Sequence record: OR062947.1
Strand: one strand, 5' to 3'
Length of the DNA: 64,000 nucleotides
From: Escherichia phage 348Ecol098PP
How positions within the stretch are numbered: position 1 is the stretch's first letter; every line of letters begins with the position of its first letter. The translations under genes and the position numbers were made by a program. The notes beneath the pieces were generated by a model, which worked only from the letters and a program-made list of their open reading frames with translations, searched no databases and was not told the origin of the DNA. This document shows positions 16,126 to 36,340 of the stretch, one piece after another.

Positions 16126-16785
16126 TTATTTAGCCCTTCCTAGTATTCGGACCGCTTGGTTGCATATAGCCGCTAAGCGATCTTCCTCAAGTATATTATT
16201 CCCCTTATACCAATACATCGTCACAGTTCCAGCATAGATGTTATCCAAATTAAAGTATGGACAACTATACATATAAGAAAGTTCGGCAGTTTTAGATTTT
16301 GTAGGCAAAAATGCAAATTCTGATTTAGACGAGAAATGACGGCCACTTAAATGAATTATATATTCATTGGCCGTTTTATCCACCGGGAACCCCCCAAGGG
16401 ACTTTTCAGAAATTGTGCTAGGCAGTTTGCCTTCATAAGCTATAAGGTCGACGAAATAATTTAAGTTTTTAGGTCTGAAAGAATACACAGCACTAAAATC
16501 TGCACCAGATGAGATATGAACTATTTGCAGTTGTTCTAGAGCCGCAGATTCAAAACGTAAAGCTCGTTCTTTTTGGATTATTTCAGTATAAGTATCATAC
16601 TTAGATCTTACATAATAATCCAGCAAAATACTTCCTTTGTACCATATTAGTGCCATTAGGAACAAAAGAATAATTACCGCTACTCGGGACATTAAAACCT
16701 TTCCAGTAGCGTTATCTTTGAAAATACGATCTAGCAACCCAAATAGAATATCACTAGGCGAAAATGACACTTTTGGTGTTGCCAT
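16126..16785 (-). CDS. t: holin T
   Basis: 219-aa ORF; ISFSPSDILFG.LDR.FKDNATGKVL.SRVAV...SCPYFNLDNIYAGT.TMYWY...RILGRAK matches recalled T4 holin. Confidence 0.9.
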   Translation of the reverse strand: MATPKVSFSPSDILFGLLDRIFKDNATGKVLMSRVAVIILLFLMALIWYKGSILLDYYVRSKYDTYTEIIQKERALRFESAALEQLQIVHISSGADFSAVYSFRPKNLNYFVDLIAYEGKLPSTISEKSLGGFPVDKTANEYIIHLSGRHFSSKSEFAFLPTKSKTAELSYMYSCPYFNLDNIYAGTVTMYWYKGNNILEEDRLAAICNQAVRILGRAK

Positions 16786-16794
16786 AATACCTCC

Positions 16795-17346
16795 TTACTT
16801 AAAGATATTTATAATTCGTTTAACAAGTGATTTGCTTTCAAGGTCAGGGAATTTAGGGAATTCGCCGCCAAGATGTTCATGTTTTTCTAAAAGGGCAAAG
16901 AATTTTTTGAGCTCTTTAAATTTTCGTTTTTCTTCTCTATTAGCAACCTCTGCATCAATAAGAGAACTTAAAACGCTGAATAATTTATAGAGTTCATGAA
17001 TTTTCTTATCACGTTGAACTACGCGTTTATATGCTTCATCTTCCTTCCACCCGTCGTCGGTCCAAATGTCAAATTCGCCAGGTTCTTCTGTAGTAACATT
17101 TTGAAGAGCACCTGGAGTGTCAATAACAATTTTTTGCTTATCATAAGTCCATACTGTTTTTCCACGATGGTCTTCAACGTATACCCATTCTTGTTCGCGT
17201 TCATCAAATACAACAGCATAGCCTTCTTTAGGGTCTAAAGGTTTTTTTGGTGTCGAATGAGCCGGAAATCCTACGCCTTTTAATGGTTTATAATTTTCTT
17301 CTTTGTAAAATTCTTTTGTATCGAAATAAAAGTGATAAATTTTCAT
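16795..17346 (-). CDS. 38: long tail fibre assembly chaperone gp38 (T4-type)
   Basis: 183-aa ORF; MKIYH.YFDTKEFYKEENYKP...EPGEFDIWTDDGWKEDE...FALLEKHEHLGGEFP matches recalled T4 gp38. Confidence 0.85.
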   Translation of the reverse strand: MKIYHFYFDTKEFYKEENYKPLKGVGFPAHSTPKKPLDPKEGYAVVFDEREQEWVYVEDHRGKTVWTYDKQKIVIDTPGALQNVTTEEPGEFDIWTDDGWKEDEAYKRVVQRDKKIHELYKLFSVLSSLIDAEVANREEKRKFKELKKFFALLEKHEHLGGEFPKFPDLESKSLVKRIINIFK

Positions 17347-17373
17347 ATTCAGAAGGGGCCGAAGCCCCTCTCC

Positions 17374-20300
17374 TTATGCTAAACGAACGATATAGTTAAA
17401 AGCAATGTTTTTAACTGTGTTTTCTGTATTACCTGTACTATTTACAGTGATAGTATGACCGTGCGAACCAATTGCTACCGAGTGGGTATGAGCACCAATA
17501 CCTACAGTATGTGTATGGGCACCAATACCTACAGTATGCGCGTGGTTACCTGTGGTATTTGTAGTTCCAGACCAAGAGTGCGTATGGTTACCTTCTGTCG
17601 ATGACTTTGCAATATATTGGCCTATACCAGGCACGATTTTGTCGCTCGTGGCAAAAGAAAGAACCTGGGTTCCGCTAATTGCAGTAGCTCCATTAGGATA
17701 TATTCCTGTTGGTTGATTATTAGGACCCCTTGGACCGGTCTGTGAGTGTTGGTGGTTCCCTGCTGCGCCAGTAGTACCACTAACGCTATGGTTATGGTTA
17801 CCTGTTGTGTTGCTGGTTTTAGTACCATAATCGAATGATGAGGTGGTTTTAGTACCATAATCGAATGATGAGGTGGTTTTAGTACCCAAATCTGTGCTTG
17901 ATGCACTTGCACTATGGCTATGAGACTTAATACCATCAGCTTCTGTACTTAATACAGCACGCCCGGATGGTTTACCCTTGATAGTTTGACCACGCATATC
18001 AGGCAGAGCGCCGGAAGGATACACCGCAGCTAACTTAGGATACAAGTCAGTATCAAACGTCTGGCCTTCCATGATGGCATAACCTTCAGGAGGTGTATCA
18101 GTAGGCCAAGGAATCGGAGCACCAATTGGGTAACTCGAGACAATATCCGTCTTAAGGTTATTTATTGTGGTATTCAAGTTAGCAAAATTACCAGTGCCGC
18201 CAGTGATGTTACCATCAGTACCGAATTGAGCATTACCAACTTTTAATGGTTTTGAAAAAAGAACATCGTCGGTTCTAAATGCAACCCCATGACCTAATGC
18301 ATTATTATATAAGTTAAGTTCATCTGAACTACCACTCCCATTACCAACGTACCATTTAACCGTATTAGCTTTTTTACCCTGAATATAAACAGCGTTGGTC
18401 AATGAAGCCGAGTTAATAATAAGCGCGGCGTTATTAGCGTTAATTGTGATAGCTTGCCCTGATGTTGTTCCACTAGTTTCTACTTTAAATCTTCCACCAC
18501 CGATATCAACATCATGATCCATGGAAACTTTACCAGTACTTAATGTAATATAGAACGGACGTAAATTAGAAATACCACCTGATTCACCAGCATTCTGCGG
18601 GGTTGGAATAATATAAAGCTTATCTTCAGAACGACGGAAAATAGCACCGTATTCGGCATTCCAAATTCTTAATGCATCAGCAGTTCCGCCAATTTTAACT
18701 TGTCCAGTAATAGAAGAACCACCTTGGACAAACAAACCATTAGACATGGTAACATTACCACCAAAAGAACCTGTACCAGAGGCACTTATATTTCCGAGCC
18801 CGACAATATGTCCAGTTTCTACAGTACCATTAAATTTAAAGTTAACCGGACCTACTGTTTGACCTGATGCAGGAGCAGTGCGTTGTGCATAAAAATAATA
18901 TCCATGCCCGTCAGCTAATTCAAAAACTGTTTCACGAGTACGAGCGCCAGATGCGTTAAATGAATTACCCCACGCTTTAATAGATACATAACTTTTATTC
19001 TGACCTGCACGAGTACCACCAGCCCACAGTATAGTTTTAGTACCATCTACTGCTGTAGGAGCGTCAAGTTGAATACCATCGGGTCTAGCGCCAGTAAGAA
19101 CTAATCCGTTATCAAATTTAATTCTTTGTATTGAAGATACTGTTCCGTCCGCTCTAATAGCAACGCTATTGGAACCGGTTTTAATATCTAAAATTCCTGG
19201 GTCAACAATAAGCCCTTCGGCCATACTAACGGACATACGACCTGTACCACGGAAATAGTGATACATTTTAGAATTACTGTTATAACCGATATGAGTTTGT
19301 CCATCACCGTTATTATTTCCATCAACATCAGTACGCGCAGTAAACATTGCTTGGTTGTTATTTGGGTAATCCCAAGTAGTACCAGAATTGCGGCTATAAC
19401 CGACCATCAATTTCTTAGTGCTGTTAATACCGTTATTCAAAATGGTAGCGGATGAAATACCGTTAGCCATGAAATCAATAACACCGTCGCGGACCCATTT
19501 AATACCTGTATCGTTATCACCAATGGCAATACCAATAGAAATAGCTGAATCCAAAGGATAACGTCCATTTGTACCATTATCAGGAAGACCTACTGAAATA
19601 GATTTACCTGCAGTAATACGCCCACTAGTATCAAACGCCCATTGGAAAGATTCCGGACCTATACCAGTCCACCAAGAAATTTCTTGTGGCTTTCCTGAAC
19701 GACAATCAGCTATTTCATGGAAAATACTAGAAGTATTCGAAGCCCGCATCTTACGGAGGTAGTTAAGACCATTTGTATTACGGTCAGAGCCATCTGCCGG
19801 TGGATTATAAATCCACATAGGTAAAGAAACCCAATCGTATCCAATGTTAGCATTAGCTACAAATGTTTTTGTACTAAAATTAATATTTTTAGTAACAATT
19901 TCAGGACCGGTGATAATACCATTAGCAGAGTTTATATTGCCTGAAGCAGAAATATTACCGGTACGAACTTCAATACTACCAGAATCTACGATGAAATTAC
20001 CATTTCGATTAAAAGTCCAATATTTCGAATCACCAGCTTCATTAATATAGTGAAATTTAAAACTACCTTCGTTTACTAATGTACCAGCAGAAAAAGTACC
20101 GTCTTTATAACGCTGCTTAATCAGAGGATGGTATTCTGATACTGAGGTAGCAGAGCTCAAATCCGTAAAGATAGGAGCTTTATTTAGGTGTTGATTTGCC
20201 CACGCGCCATTTCCAGCAGTTTTTGGCAAGAATTCAATATACTTTCCTGCATAAACAAACTGGTTTCCATTAAGATTATATGTACCGTTTTGTAAATAAT

Positions 20301-20499
20301 CACCATTTTGAGTTACATTACCGTTAATATCCCCGCCCTTAGCAAAGCCTAGGCTAATAATATTACCGAGGTCATCTTTAGTAAAAAGAGTTCGATCTTT
20401 TAAGTTTATCGCTAATTCGCCTTCGGCTAATTGTGCTGCAGTAGGATTAACTCCTGCCACTTTGCTTCTTTTAAATTGTATCTGTTTTAATGTAGCCAT
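17374..20499 (-). CDS. 37: long tail fibre distal subunit gp37 (receptor-binding, His-box type)
   Basis: 1041-aa ORF; C-terminal GNHxH His-box repeats ([25 protein letters not shown]); position between genes 36 and 38. Confidence 0.9.
17487..17540. repeat. tandem 27-bp direct repeat (two copies, 3 mismatches) inside gene 37
   Basis: tatgagcaccaatacctacagtatgtg / tatgggcaccaatacctacagtatgcg; encodes the duplicated His-box segment. Confidence 0.7.
17821..17880. repeat. perfect tandem 30-bp duplication inside gene 37
   Basis: agtaccataatcgaatgatgaggtggtttt twice; encodes [10 protein letters not shown] twice. Confidence 0.85.
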
Positions 20500-20507
20500 A
20501 AGTCCTC

Positions 20508-21173
20508 TTAATAATAGCCGAAATCTTGAACAGAATCCTTAATTACGATTTGGTCGAAACGAGGAACATGATTAGCCTCAGACGCCGGATTCTGTGAGAA
20601 AAAGTTTGGTGCTGTTAAAGTACCAGTCATGGTATCGCCAGAACGCAATACACGGGAATTTGCGTTATCCGTAACAATATTTATTCGTCCATCAACATAA
20701 TCTTTTCTTGTGAGATCATTTGCTGCAACTGGAGCAGTCATATCGCTTCTTACTTGTCCTGAAGCAGATACAACGCCTTTTGTATTAATATCACCATTAC
20801 GTGTATTGATTACTACAGTTCTACCCGCTGTTCCTTGTGATGATTTAAAACCAATACCATACCATGAAACAATATCAATATTTGCTGTAACAAAAGTAGC
20901 TGCATCACCGTTACCAGGAAAAATACCGCTTTGGTTTGTATTGTTTATAGCATATGGTATTTGCACGCCACTGTTAAATGTTACCTTTGAAGCGTAAGTA
21001 CCACCATTAGCTTTAGAAACGAAATCATTATCAGCAGCTTGCGGTTTATTATATTCTGAATAGAGTTTAAACGTTTTATACAGGACGTCATCACCTGCTG
21101 GCATTAAAGGGAAATTACCTTGATGCCATATAACAGCACCGCCAGTTGTACTACCAGCTTTTAAATCGGCCAT
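20508..21173 (-). CDS. 36: long tail fibre distal connector gp36
   Basis: 221-aa ORF between genes 35 and 37; size matches T4 gp36. Confidence 0.85.
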
Positions 21174-21235: not shown

Positions 21236-22363
21236 TTATTCTGATGCTTCTTTAAATTCTTGTCCAAATACCTTACCAGTATCAGTTGAAGATTGAGTAG
21301 GTAATGTCATTATGTCTGGGGCACTTAAAGACTCTGAAACATAATTTACACGAATACCATTTATACCAAACTCGGCAGGTTTTGAAACGCTTCCATTACA
21401 TGATACTTCAGTGAATATAACGTTTCTTAATCCACCTTGCCCGACTGGAGCTGTACGATAACAATAAATCGTGAACCCGTCGGCATCAGCAGGAATTTCT
21501 ATGTAGTCTTCATATATCTTCCATTCACCTGCAGTCCCATCAAAGTTTATATCCTTAAATGAAATAGGTGAAGTAGAAGGAGATTTAAAGAAACGAATAG
21601 AAAGTCGTGTCGTCCCTTGTGCTAACAAATCGGCATTGGCCATTAGTTGGAATTTCATATAAAGGAAATCTCCAGGCTTCAATTTATACCCAGCGAGAGG
21701 TGTAATAATGGATGTTGTAGGCATCCTTTTAATTTCATTATTAGTACCTCCAATGGCAGATAAAAATGTGTCTGACGATTCATACGTACGACTAGGGAAG
21801 CCGGTAGCACCAATATCATCGATCGTGTCGTACACAACATCAAGTGGTGTACTATAGTCGGTTGAAGTTTTCTTATTACTATACTTAATATGTTCTAGTG
21901 CTATAGCATTCTTACCAGAAATATAAAATGCCGAATAAGAAATGTCCACTATATTTAAAACTTGTTGAGCTAATGGAATAGCAGAACTCCCAGCTTTAGT
22001 AAACCATGCGAGAACTTCAGGAGGAAAGTTTGTTTTAGCGTTAGTAACAAGAGCAAATATAAAATTTGAAGCATATGTGTCCATGAAAGTAACAAATGCA
22101 CTTGACGTGGCGTCGTTTTCAGTAGAGAAATTATATGACTTAGATTCAACTACTGCACCTGTTGTAGGATTTATTACACGAACGTTTAATCCAACGGAAA
22201 AAACCTGGGACCCAAGTGGATTATCTTGGAACTTAATATAAGTAGGAGATGTTGATAGCGGACAAGATCCCGCTATACTTAATTTAAATCGTACTGAATT
22301 GCTTTCCGATAAAAATGGCGTTTGGACGTATCCTTGTCCAAACTTAGCCATAAATTTTTCCAT
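21236..22363 (-). CDS. 35: long tail fibre hinge connector gp35
   Basis: 375-aa ORF between genes 34 and 36; size matches T4 gp35 (372 aa). Confidence 0.85.
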   Translation of the reverse strand: MEKFMAKFGQGYVQTPFLSESNSVRFKLSIAGSCPLSTSPTYIKFQDNPLGSQVFSVGLNVRVINPTTGAVVESKSYNFSTENDATSSAFVTFMDTYASNFIFALVTNAKTNFPPEVLAWFTKAGSSAIPLAQQVLNIVDISYSAFYISGKNAIALEHIKYSNKKTSTDYSTPLDVVYDTIDDIGATGFPSRTYESSDTFLSAIGGTNNEIKRMPTTSIITPLAGYKLKPGDFLYMKFQLMANADLLAQGTTRLSIRFFKSPSTSPISFKDINFDGTAGEWKIYEDYIEIPADADGFTIYCYRTAPVGQGGLRNVIFTEVSCNGSVSKPAEFGINGIRVNYVSESLSAPDIMTLPTQSSTDTGKVFGQEFKEASE

Positions 22364-34084: not shown

Positions 34085-36340
34085 ATGCAAGTAACTAAGA
34101 GCAGTGGTGTATCCCAAAATTTTGATGCACAGAAAATTATTCAAGTCTTAACTTGGCAATGTGAAGGAACACAAATTGACCCATATGAATTGTACGAAGA
34201 AATTAAGACCCATCTTGTTGACGGGATGAGCACCAAAGATATCCAGAAGATTTGTATTAAAGTTGCAGCTAACTCGATTTCTGTCGAAGAACCTGATTAT
34301 CAGTATGTCGCCGCCAAAGGGCTAATGTTTGCACTTCGTAAAGATGTATATGGGCAGTTTGAACCGCCTGCTTTTATCGACCATATTTCTTATTGTGTTA
34401 ATGAAGGCAAATATGACCCTGAGCTGTTGTCTCAATATTCAGCAGAAGAAATCATTTATCTCGATTCACAGATTAAACATGAGCGAGATTTTGACCTGAC
34501 TTATGCTGGTGCTATGCAGCTTAAAGAAAAATACCTGGTTAAAGATAAAACAACTGGGAAGATTTATGAAACTCCCCAGTTTGCTATCATGGCCATTGGC
34601 ATGGCCTTACACCAAGACGAAACTCATGACCGTTTGAAACATATTATTCGTTTTTATGATGCCGTTTCTACTCATCAAGTTTCATTGCCTACCCCAATTA
34701 TGGCAGGTGCTCGTACTCCAACTCGCCAGTTCTCTAGTTGTGTAGTTATTGAAGCAGGTGATTCGTTAAAATCTATTAACAAAACTTCAGCATCAATTAT
34801 TGAATATATTTCTAAACGAGCTGGTATCGGTATCAACGTTGGTATGCTTCGTGCAGAAGGTTCTAAGATCGGTATGGGTGAAGTTCGACATACAGGTGTT
34901 ATTCCATTCTGGAAACATTTCCAAACTGCAGTAAAATCTTGTTCTCAAGGTGGTATTCGTGGTGGTGCTGCTACAGCGTATTATCCGATGTGGCACTTAG
35001 AAGTAGAGAACCTATTAGTTCTGAAAAATAACAAAGGCGTGGATGAAAACCGTATTCGTCATATGGACTACGGAATTCAGATTAATGACCTTATGATGGA
35101 ACGCCTTGGTAAAAATGATTATATTACTTTATTTAGCCCTCACGAAATGTCAGGCGAACTATACTACTCGTTCTTTGAAGATCAAGATAAATTCCGTGAG
35201 CTTTATGAGAAAGCTGAAAAAGACCCGTCAATCAGAAAGAAAAGAATCAAAGCACTAGAACTCTTTGAATTGTTCATGACTGAACGTTCTGGCACTGCTC
35301 GAATTTATCCACAGTTTGTTGATAACACGAATAACTACACTCCATTTATTCGTGAAAAAGCTCCAATTCGTCAGAGTAACTTATGTTGTGAAATCGCTAT
35401 TCCAACTAATGATGTGAATGGTCCTGATGCTGAAATTGGTTTATGCACATTATCTGCTTTTGTATTAGATAAATTTGATTGGCAAGACCAAGATAAAATT
35501 AATGAACTTGCTGAAGTACAAGTACGTGCACTTGATAACCTGTTAGACTATCAAGATTATCCGGTTCCAGAAGCTTTAAAAGCTAAAAAGCGTCGAAACC
35601 TCGGTGTTGGTGTTACGAACTATGCCGCATGGTTAGCTTCCAACTTTGCTTCATATGAAGACGCTAACGATTTGACTCATGAATTGTTTGAGAGATTGCA
35701 ATATGGCCTTATCAAAGCATCAATCAAACTCGCCAAAGAAAAAGGATGTTGCGAGTATTATTCAGACACTAAATGGTCTAGAGGCGAATTACCTATCGAC
35801 TGGTACAATAAAAAGATTGACCAAATCGCAGCCCCGAACTACGTCTGTGACTGGGAAGAACTTCGAGCTGAACTCAAAGAACATGGAATTCGTAACTCAA
35901 CGTTGTCTGCACTCATGCCTTGTGAGTCAAGCAGTCAAGTATCGAACTCTACAAATGGGATTGAGCCACCACGCGGTCCAGTAAGTATTAAAGAATCTAA
36001 AGAAGGCAACTTCCGACAGGTTGTTCCTAATATCGAACATAACATGAGTCTTTACGACTATGCGTGGAAACTTGCTAAGAAAGGTAATAAACCTTATTTG
36101 ACCCAAGTTGCTATCATGTTGAAATGGGTGTGCCAATCTGCTTCTGCTAATACTTACTATGACCCTGCAGTATTTGAGAAAGGTAAAGTGCCAATGTCAG
36201 TAATGCTTGACGATCTGCTTTACTTCTGGTACTTTGGCGGAAAAAACCTCTACTATCATAACACTCGTGATGGGTCTGGTACAGACGACTATGAATTAGA
36301 AACACCTAAAGCAGAAGATTGTTCTGCTTGTAAGCTTTAA
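34085..36340 (+). CDS. nrdA: ribonucleoside-diphosphate reductase alpha subunit
   Basis: 751-aa ORF with class I RNR motifs (ATP-cone N-terminus, catalytic NLCCEI, C-terminal CSACKL). Confidence 0.9.
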   Translation: MQVTKSSGVSQNFDAQKIIQVLTWQCEGTQIDPYELYEEIKTHLVDGMSTKDIQKICIKVAANSISVEEPDYQYVAAKGLMFALRKDVYGQFEPPAFIDHISYCVNEGKYDPELLSQYSAEEIIYLDSQIKHERDFDLTYAGAMQLKEKYLVKDKTTGKIYETPQFAIMAIGMALHQDETHDRLKHIIRFYDAVSTHQVSLPTPIMAGARTPTRQFSSCVVIEAGDSLKSINKTSASIIEYISKRAGIGINVGMLRAEGSKIGMGEVRHTGVIPFWKHFQTAVKSCSQGGIRGGAATAYYPMWHLEVENLLVLKNNKGVDENRIRHMDYGIQINDLMMERLGKNDYITLFSPHEMSGELYYSFFEDQDKFRELYEKAEKDPSIRKKRIKALELFELFMTERSGTARIYPQFVDNTNNYTPFIREKAPIRQSNLCCEIAIPTNDVNGPDAEIGLCTLSAFVLDKFDWQDQDKINELAEVQVRALDNLLDYQDYPVPEALKAKKRRNLGVGVTNYAAWLASNFASYEDANDLTHELFERLQYGLIKASIKLAKEKGCCEYYSDTKWSRGELPIDWYNKKIDQIAAPNYVCDWEELRAELKEHGIRNSTLSALMPCESSSQVSNSTNGIEPPRGPVSIKESKEGNFRQVVPNIEHNMSLYDYAWKLAKKGNKPYLTQVAIMLKWVCQSASANTYYDPAVFEKGKVPMSVMLDDLLYFWYFGGKNLYYHNTRDGSGTDDYELETPKAEDCSACKL

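Follow-up and report, generated by a model that had tools for sequence, protein, structure and literature searches.

The two in-frame tandem repeats near the end of gene 37 of Escherichia phage 348Ecol098PP, one with a period of 30 bp and the other of 27 bp, probably make up, one half each, a single structural module of the needle formed by a T4-type gp37, their copy numbers coupled to each other by the register of the needle stem. The phage is a Mosigvirus. Structures of this kind are known, and the pair is an ordinary feature of this fibre, not a host-range switch. The analysis adds one small and perhaps new point: that 'FDYG' and 'TDLG' units in the ascending arm of the stem, and 'His boxes' in the descending arm, expand together in states that we write as 32/3, 42/4 and 52/5 (ascending gap in residues/number of boxes). 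All positions refer to the window, by which we mean the whole 64-kb stretch of DNA that was analysed.

Gene 37 (17374–20499, minus strand, from the ORF list and its translation) encodes the long tail fibre distal subunit, of 1041 aa. The protein matches the Pfam domains Collar (PF07484, E = 1.5e-11) and gp37_trimer (PF20744, E = 4.1e-11) as well as phrog_1699 (E = 4e-241), and is aligned by phmmer to T4 gp37 (2xgf_A, E = 3.9e-89, query residues 30–308). Eight HxH motifs occur in it, at residues 860, 902, 916, 972, 986, 995, 1004 and 1013 (spacing 42, 14, 56, 14, 9, 9, 9), and all seven T4 motifs are kept in the alignment to 2XGF. The product is a T4-type gp37 with a C-terminal needle; octahedral coordination of Fe2+ by the HxH histidines of a trimer is putative. 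The neighbouring genes lie on the same strand in the order g36, g37, g38 and t, as in annotated relatives. They encode gp36 (20508–21173; Pfam Phage_T4_gp36), the 183-aa gene 38 product (16795–17346) and holin T (16126–16785; Pfam Phage_holin_T). The gene 38 product is a T4-type tail fibre assembly chaperone (Pfam Caudo_TAP, E = 7.6e-5; phrog_105, 'tail fiber assembly', E = 2.4e-49) whose counterpart in phage S143_2 is annotated as T4 gp38-like. The preliminary description had paired gp37 with a T4-type gp38 chaperone, and these matches bear it out. Between genes 37 and 38, where the annotations of relatives place a terminator, a simple scan detected none. In T2-type systems gp38 is a larger adhesin that sits at the fibre tip and carries glycine-rich motifs, and gp37 has no receptor-binding needle of its own. 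Such a system is ruled out here: the gene 38 product matches tail-fibre assembly families only, and the needle in gp37 is complete.

In T4 gp37 the stem comprises residues 882–931 and 960–1009, the tip residues 932–959, and there are seven iron sites (PMC6957217). Alignment to 2XGF divides the needle of 348Ecol098PP in the same way, with all of its parts on the minus strand. The ascending arm (residues 859–918; 17746–17925) has 60 aa to the 50 of T4, and carries the HxH motifs H860/862 (17914–17922), H902/904 (17788–17796) and H916/918 (17746–17754). The distal tip, or head, subdomain follows (residues 919–965; 17605–17745), with 47 aa to the 28 of T4. The descending arm (residues 966–1024; 17428–17604), with 59 aa to T4's 50, carries H972, H986, H995, H1004 and H1013. 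The two fibres are thus alike in their collar domain, up-and-down HxH needle stem, distal tip subdomain and downstream gp38-type chaperone, and the last 17 aa are identical. They differ in the number of HxH motifs (seven in T4, eight here), in the length of the arms (10 aa more in the ascending and 9 aa more in the descending arm of 348Ecol098PP) and in the tip, where the sequences are unrelated as well as unequal in length.

Both repeats belong, by this alignment, to the conserved needle stem, outside the receptor-contacting tip subdomain. The residues of T4 that contact the receptor (929–953) fall in the distal tip subdomain (PMC6957217), and residues 919–965, which are present in single copy, are presumed to be the hypervariable, receptor-contacting part in 348Ecol098PP. 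Over 119 T-even clusters, conservation is 0.91–0.97 in the blocks that bear the repeats and 0.20–0.41 in residues 923–962 between them, and among relatives the gap from the third to the fourth HxH motif ranges from 35 to 60 aa. The 'receptor-binding tip' in which the preliminary description located the repeats is apt if the term is taken loosely, for all of the C-terminal fragment that was crystallised, but not for the distal tip subdomain, since it is the stem that holds the repeats. An AlphaFold2 monomer of residues 773–1041, built from a 66-sequence alignment, is confident in the collar alone (mean pLDDT 62, pTM 0.31), and a Foldseek search with this poor model, which returned 2xgf_A first (E = 2.9e-15, TM 0.31–0.37), is uninformative on the register of the stem.

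The 30-bp repeat consists of two units (17821–17880, minus strand) of ten residues each, K874–T883 and K884–T893. The unit at 17851–17880 is the same as that at 17821–17850, without a single difference; on the coding strand it reads AAAACCACCTCATCATTCGATTATGGTACT, and, being in frame, the pair encodes the same 10-aa peptide twice. Tandem Repeats Finder (TRF) extends the array to 17814–17886 (period 30, 2.4 copies, 100% matches, score 146), a partial third copy running down to 17814. In the alignment to 2XGF the second unit coincides exactly with a 10-aa gap; T4 has one unit. The 27-bp repeat belongs to a run of four successive nine-residue His boxes in the descending arm (17437–17544, minus strand; TRF and alignment to 2XGF): HAHTVGIGA (17518–17544), HTHTVGIGA (17491–17517), HTHSVAIGS (17464–17490) and HGHTITVNS (17437–17463). 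Nucleotide differences from box to box are 4, 8, 10 and 18. TRF reports the array as 17467–17538 (period 27, 2.7 copies, 84% matches, score 88), and in the phase used by the preliminary description the copies at 17512–17538 and 17485–17511 differ at 2 of 27 nt. Here too the addition is exact: HTHTVGIGA coincides with a 9-aa gap against 2XGF, T4 having three boxes where 348Ecol098PP has four. Both repeats had been described before. The perfect 30-bp duplication lies where it was placed, on the minus strand within the ORF, and the imperfect 27-bp repeat given as 17487–17540, encoding a duplicated His box, is real and spans the first and second boxes, though not in their phase. At a TRF score of at least 50, the entire window holds three tandem repeats, and these arrays are two of them.

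We propose the following explanation. Each chain of the trimer would climb the stem, make the receptor-contacting tip, and return antiparallel to itself, and the HxH motifs of the three chains would come together in a stack of metal (Fe2+) sites that follows the axis. Compared with T4, the stem of 348Ecol098PP has one more 10-residue unit in the ascending arm and one more 9-residue His box in the descending arm, presumably at the same axial level. A published contact suggests this pairing. Residue G921 of T4 touches F970 (PMC6957217), which gives an antiparallel rule of i + j ~1891, and by this rule the T4 unit, 897–906, faces residues 985–994, within the run of His boxes. That the two insertions face each other in 348Ecol098PP is what we infer from this one contact together with the spacing of the motifs. 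The arms stay matched with the double addition (60 + 59 residues here, 50 + 50 in T4), and the stem gains an eighth HxH site and a predicted ~3 nm in length. Along the axis, the eight sites of ascending (A) and descending (D) motifs would be expected in the order A-D-D-D-D-A-D-A. Metal at the eighth site, the lengthening itself, and the misfolding of variants in which a change in one arm is uncompensated in the other would all be expected on this arrangement. The form with two units and four boxes, which is the common one in the genera Mosigvirus, Tequatrovirus and Dhakavirus, would be old, with selection on stem register keeping both copy numbers together. Host specificity would vary by way of the tip subdomain, which stands in single copy where the arms meet, and the conserved stem sequences that flank the tip would be sites of homologous exchange.

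Evidence that the two numbers are coupled comes from some 500 homologues, in which ascending gaps of 32, 42 and 52 aa pair, with very few exceptions, with three, four and five nine-spaced His boxes. Counting proteins and translated loci, 185 sequences have a gap of 32 aa and three boxes, and 206 have a gap of 41–42 aa and four, the latter state being over-represented since the homologues were collected as best-scoring matches to a query with two units and four boxes. A gap of 52 occurs with five boxes in L224, L273, L292, P0240 and P0241, and among more distant fibres (L177–L179) gaps of 54 and 44 pair with five and four boxes. The expansions are of different types, some by a 10-aa FDYG unit, others by a 20-aa TDLG+FDYG double unit or by units of TDLG type, which speaks for independent origins. 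When a tree was built from the flanking sequences, Fitch parsimony required at least seven changes, a rough count given that the tree rests on 113 columns and is confounded by recombination. Exceptions are a metagenome contig (L001/L085; IMGVR_UViG_3300030021_000020) with two units and three boxes, a state that may be real or an assembly collapse; P0337, with a gap of 32 and four nine-spaced boxes, whose distal layout is another one, the 14-spaced HxH pair being absent; and P0316 and P0345, which have internal deletions. Linkage does not explain the co-variation, because the arms recombine separately: in 348Ecol098PP the closest relative is S143_2 for the collar (97.5%) and the tip (94.3%) and JM17 for the descending arm (93.2%), and the ascending arm is at most 86.7% identical to that of any relative. 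That unit and box numbers nonetheless change together suggests that structure constrains them and that neither is free to expand or contract.

The same rule, in the states 32/3, 42/4 and 52/5, is found in the Stf-like side tail fibres of lambdoid and other enterobacterial prophages, which resemble 348Ecol098PP gp37 in collar, stem and C-terminus at 55–70% identity. These fibres differ from it in their N-terminal shafts (Pfam PF03335, PF03406, PF08400 and others) and in being prophage-encoded rather than T-even. Nearer relatives, the gp37s of S143_2, JM17, vB_EcoM-172859UKE1, JK42 and ESCO10 (Mosigvirus, Tequatrovirus and Dhakavirus), share the layout of two units, four boxes and eight HxH motifs (spacing 42, 14, x, 14, 9, 9, 9). 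The gp37s of these genera are unlike that of 348Ecol098PP in the sequence and length of the tip, and mostly in that their 30-bp units differ from each other at 3–8 nt.

Identity between the units is confined to 348Ecol098PP, ESCO10 and a VR25-like contig (0 of 30 nt differ), each with a unit sequence of its own; in each of 31 other haplotypes, between 3 and 11 of the 30 nt are not the same in unit 2 as in unit 1. The number is eight in 308Ecol101PP and F31, and every one of these differences is synonymous. The perfect identity in 348Ecol098PP is a sign that the units were recently homogenised while their number stayed the same, for which gene conversion, or a cycle of slippage or unequal crossing-over, may be responsible. 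The earlier suggestion that the repeats are substrates for slippage and recombination survives in this part: the copies appear to interact, as the three homogenised lineages and rare deletions ending in His boxes attest. It does not extend to a change in copy number.

The preliminary description went further, and saw in changes of repeat number a mechanism of host-range variation, to be checked by comparing copy number among relatives, where constancy would count against it. Constancy is largely what the comparison gave. The state of two units and four boxes (gap 41/42) is present in 117 of 119 T-even gp37 protein clusters, the closest relative compared being 94% identical in protein, and the other state among T-even phages is that of T4, with one unit and three boxes. 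A spread of 281 phage records was sampled as well, and every match whose alignment takes in 86% or more of the query has the same span in the record as in the query. Of 16 T-even tips inspected at the DNA level, all have two units and 15 have four boxes, the metagenome contig L085, with three, being the exception. No three-unit form was found in the T-even sets examined, or by a synthetic protein query with three units and five boxes, which retrieved mostly short prophage fragments and two prophage-type proteins in state 52/5; a degenerate pattern scan for three tandem FDYG units was applied to viral contigs.

These results bear directly on the reading of the repeats as a contingency-type device, in which slipped-strand mispairing or unequal recombination often changes the number of units or boxes and so alters receptor recognition and host range. 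The DNA is suited to it: the units are highly identical and misalignable (100% for the 30-bp repeat, which is perfect across 73 bp, and all but 2 of 27 nt for the other), the homogenised pairs in three lineages show that copies interact, and rare variants have deletions that end in His boxes (L001/L085 and P0345). Laboratory-selected duplications of a related kind are also said to exist. Those of Tetart et al. 1996 (J Mol Biol 258:726, by title a report that small adhesin domain duplications expand the T4 host range) were reportedly in-frame and tandem, lay in C-terminal gene 37 and involved His boxes. They resemble the present repeats in these respects, and indicate that such a duplication can be viable, but they reportedly repeat the receptor-recognising segment itself. 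In 348Ecol098PP that segment, residues 919–965, is present once, and the repeats are fixed, conserved elements of the stem. Against a contingency device, moreover, copy number hardly differs among the relatives compared, the repeats occupy those stretches of the needle that are conserved best, with the hypervariable region between them, the contact residues known from T4 are in the tip subdomain (PMC6957217), and, as the two numbers co-vary, a single slip would give a mismatched stem. We consider such a device unlikely, and repeat number finds no support as a mechanism of host-range variation. There is a slim chance that, in homogenised lineages such as that of 348Ecol098PP, slippage gives rise to variants of one or three units often enough to be measured, whether or not the His boxes change to match, and that some of these have shorter or longer needles and altered adsorption or host range. 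If real, they would amount to a built-in mechanism of length variation, with products too transient or rare to appear in databases.

A further possibility, to which we give roughly even odds, is that the stem sequences matter mainly as DNA, as homology anchors for the swapping of tip cassettes between phages and prophages, and that the numbers of repeats are incidental. Many megablast matches to the C-terminal 927 bp fall in two pieces that cover 72–81% of the query, which fits a divergent tip that does not align; the tip and the descending arm have different nearest relatives, as given above; and thousands of enterobacterial prophage tail-fibre proteins have these stem sequences joined to differing N-terminal parts. 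Recombination between conserved motifs is reportedly what Tetart et al. proposed in 1998. What a role as anchors leaves unexplained is the joint change in the two arms and the prevalence of matched states. It is compatible with the structural module and fits alongside it rather than replacing it. That the 30-bp duplication is a product of faulty assembly or sequencing, or a chance similarity, is improbable in the extreme. Nothing specific speaks for it, beyond the exact gp37 being on record from one contig (P0121). We reject it on the grounds that the two-unit layout and reading frame are common to all close relatives examined, that perfect unit pairs of other sequence occur in two more independently sequenced phage genomes, and that the TRF score of 146 at 100% identity belongs to one of just three tandem repeats in 64 kb.

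For 348Ecol098PP and its relatives, the interpretation of the repeats as a structural module of the stem means that host-range engineering and prediction should be aimed at residues 919–965, and not at the repeats. As resistant hosts, ompA and wbbD mutants are reported in the source paper on this phage. Should a trimer structure bear it out, the co-expansion rule would mark out a modular rung in the metal-binding needle, would provide a simple rule for the design of longer or shorter fibres, and would make it possible to predict from sequence alone how many metal sites each fibre has.

Gene 37 of this phage (17374-20499, minus strand) is an open reading frame (ORF) whose translation gives the distal subunit of the long tail fibre, 1041 amino acids (aa) in length. 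Domain searches find in the product a phage tail collar domain and the gp37 trimerisation region, and it matches phrog_1699, ‘long tail fiber protein distal subunit’, with an E-value of 4e-241. Its 608 C-terminal residues, the part that was searched, are 100% identical to the deposited 1041-aa long-tail fibre protein of 348Ecol098PP, a Mosigvirus (accession OR062947; genome 170,844 bp; PMC11510089). A gp36 homologue lies upstream; downstream lie holin T and a T4 gp38-type chaperone of tail-fibre assembly, 183 aa long, the partner that the preliminary description had named. Between the stop codon of gene 37 and the start codon of gene 38 are 27 bp that contain a GC-rich hairpin, GGGGCCGAAGCCCC, at 17350-17373, and a putative transcriptional terminator is annotated at the equivalent position in the relatives G2469 and WFbE185. 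A simple terminator scan returned no match at this hairpin, because its stem lacks a following T run. Upstream of gene 36, a 375-aa ORF (21236-22363, minus strand) sits where gp35, which forms the hinge of the fibre, would be expected. Residues 58-129 of this ORF match Pfam family PF15711, ‘Interleukin-like EMT inducer’ (ILEI; E 4.7e-7), a name that one would not expect on a protein of a phage fibre.

Comparison with relatives shows gene 37 to be mosaic on a fine scale. The 608 C-terminal residues are 94% identical to those of phage vB_EcoM-172859UKE1. Across the whole gene at the DNA level, the records of widest coverage are just 83-84% identical, and matches of 88-90% span 75-83% of it, in several pieces. 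Over the final 270 codons, the closest relative switches from segment to segment.

Two in-frame tandem repeats had been reported near the end of gene 37, and both are genuine. The 30-bp repeat has two units of identical sequence (17851-17880 and 17821-17850), both encoding the same 10-aa peptide, of the ‘FDYG’ type; Tandem Repeats Finder (TRF) places the array at 17814-17886 (period 30, 2.4 copies, 100% matches). The imperfect 27-bp repeat, which encodes 9-residue HxH repeats or ‘His boxes’, is reported at 17467-17538 (period 27, 2.7 copies, 84% matches), and its first two copies, in the phase originally described, differ at 2 of 27 nucleotides. These are two of only three tandem repeats in the 64-kb window with a TRF score of at least 50. 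The third is at 34521-34557 (period 19, 2.0 copies, 84% matches).

The needle of T4 gp37 comprises residues 882-1009: a stem of two 50-residue arms, one ascending (882-931) and one descending (960-1009), and a tip subdomain between them (932-959). Seven iron atoms lie along it, and residues intolerant of alanine, receptor-contact residues included, cluster at 929-953 (PMC6957217). The C-terminal 279 residues of the window gp37 align to the solved T4 tip, 2XGF (E 3.9e-89), with two clean gaps in T4, one of 10 aa (the second 10-aa unit) and one of 9 aa (HTHTVGIGA); the segment between the gaps is longer in the window and unrelated in sequence to T4. T4 boundaries transferred through this alignment give an ascending arm of 60 aa (859-918), a tip of 47 aa (919-965) and a descending arm of 59 aa (966-1024). 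Eight HxH motifs are present, spaced 42, 14, 56, 14, 9, 9 and 9 residues apart (32, 14, 37, 14, 9 and 9 in T4). Together, transferred boundaries and spacing indicate that both repeats are stem elements, one per arm, outside the receptor-contacting end. Their earlier placement in the receptor-binding tip thus holds for the C-terminal needle, but not for the end that contacts the receptor. A monomer AlphaFold2 model was poor (mean pLDDT 62, pTM 0.31) and uninformative on register; its best structural match was 2xgf_A, with a TM of just 0.31-0.37.

The numbers of units and boxes change together. Two quantities were measured in proteins retrieved by three database searches and in loci translated from viral contigs: the ‘ascending gap’ (the distance from first to second HxH, which holds the units) and how many nine-spaced HxH boxes follow one another at the C-terminal end. 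Gaps of 32 aa accompany three boxes (185 sequences), and gaps of 41-42 aa accompany four (206 sequences). Gaps of 52 aa accompany five, in homologues that end alike in ...NIAFNY[IL]VRLA (loci L224, L273 and L292; proteins P0240 and P0241). Among more distant fibres, L179 combines a 44-aa gap with four boxes, and L177 and L178 combine 54 aa with five. The latter two (IMGVR_UViG_2974557342_000001 and IMGVR_UViG_3300045988_001525) are 408-aa tail-fibre proteins ending in ...SYVVY[VI]WKRVA; they have four xFDxG units inside the gap and obey the pairing rule of the gp37 family. The expansions are of different types: a 10-aa FDYG unit, a 20-aa TDLG+FDYG double unit, and TDLG-type units. Parsimony on a tree of flanking sequences gives at least seven changes of state, a rough figure because the flanks are short and recombining. 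Linkage does not account for the association, because the two arms have separate histories. The descending arm is closest to phage JM17 (93.2%), and no relative exceeds 86.7% identity to the ascending arm; for collar and tip the nearest relative is S143_2 (97.5% and 94.3%).

A geometric reading of the needle would fit this pairing. In T4 gp37, G921 contacts F970 (PMC6957217), and hence an antiparallel rule, i+j of about 1891, follows. With the descending boxes mapped onto the ascending axis, the T4 metal sites would fall, counted in residues from the first HxH, at approximately 0, 10, 19, 28, 32, 42 and 46 (arm order A-D-D-D-A-D-A). Those of the window, which has an additional unit and an additional box, would fall at 0, 10, 19, 28, 37, 42, 51 and 56 (A-D-D-D-D-A-D-A). 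The additional unit would span precisely the additional box; if just three boxes accompanied a 42-aa gap, a descending site would lie level with the second ascending site.

One homologue is a clear mismatch. This T-even-like gp37 (L001/L085; IMGVR_UViG_3300030021_000020), on a 10.5-kb metagenome contig, has a 42-aa gap, two FDYG units and three boxes. It could be a genuine product of slippage or a defective gene, or its 27-bp repeat could have collapsed during assembly. P0337 combines a 32-aa gap with four boxes and, since it is without the 14-spaced HxH pair, has a different distal layout. Internal deletions occur in P0316 and P0345, in one of the two with ends in His boxes, and P0319 keeps the spacing with one His changed to Asn. 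These variants show that box-to-box recombination occurs and that its products are rare. Separately, four IMG/VR contigs (L238, L265, L185 and L232) encode 9 to 12 uninterrupted 9-residue HxH boxes (e.g. HTHNISIPS|HTHNVSVPN) and no FDYG-type partner motif; they may be single-arm metal-binding fibres. Other matches to this pattern (e.g. L187 and L260) are apparently low-complexity sequence rather than real proteins.

The preliminary description had proposed that the repeats could vary host range through changes in copy number. Among T-even clusters, 117 of 119 have the 41/42-aa gap with four boxes, two have the T4 state, and none is mismatched. T-even tips compared as DNA have two units in all 16 cases and four boxes in 15, the exception being metagenome contig L085. 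The unit region is matched by 281 phage records; in a spread sample of these, all rows whose alignment covered 86% or more of the query had spans of equal length in record and query, and T4 and RB59 aligned through the first unit only. No three-unit T-even form was found among the T-even relatives examined. An invariant copy number, which that description had named as evidence against itself, is largely what relatives display, the nearest one compared being 94% identical in protein. Conservation, taken as the fraction of 119 aligned T-even gp37 clusters sharing the window's residue, is 0.91-0.97 in the repeat-bearing blocks and just 0.20-0.41 at residues 923-962, and the third and fourth HxH lie between 35 and 60 aa apart. 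Variation is concentrated between the repeats, not within them, and the interpretation as a host-range switch is largely not supported.

The perfect identity of the 30-bp units is uncommon. Of the 34 distinct two-unit haplotypes compared as DNA, three have identical units 1 and 2, and in all others the units differ by 3-11 nucleotides. The three (the window, the Dhakavirus ESCO10, and a VR25-like contig) have different unit sequences. Window and ESCO10 units are two positions apart, and each difference is common to both copies within a phage, a pattern that requires at least two homogenisation events. In phages 308Ecol101PP and F31 both units encode the same peptide, yet 8 of 30 nucleotides differ, all synonymously. 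Hence the two-unit state is old. A few lineages have homogenised their units recently, through gene conversion or a cycle of slippage or unequal crossover that left copy number unchanged. Recombinational activity, as originally suggested, is thus favoured by three homogenised lineages, but copy-number diversity as its product is not.

Repeats in gene 37 are a known kind of feature, and the present observation of them is real. The His-box region was reportedly discussed by Tetart et al. in 1996 and 1998 as a site of duplication and exchange. Most sequenced relatives share the layout seen in the window, and metal sites of the HxH type are well documented, both for gp37 and for fibres related to it (PMC6957217; PMC11705849). 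The rule of matched expansion, of units together with boxes, is a modest structural-evolutionary point.
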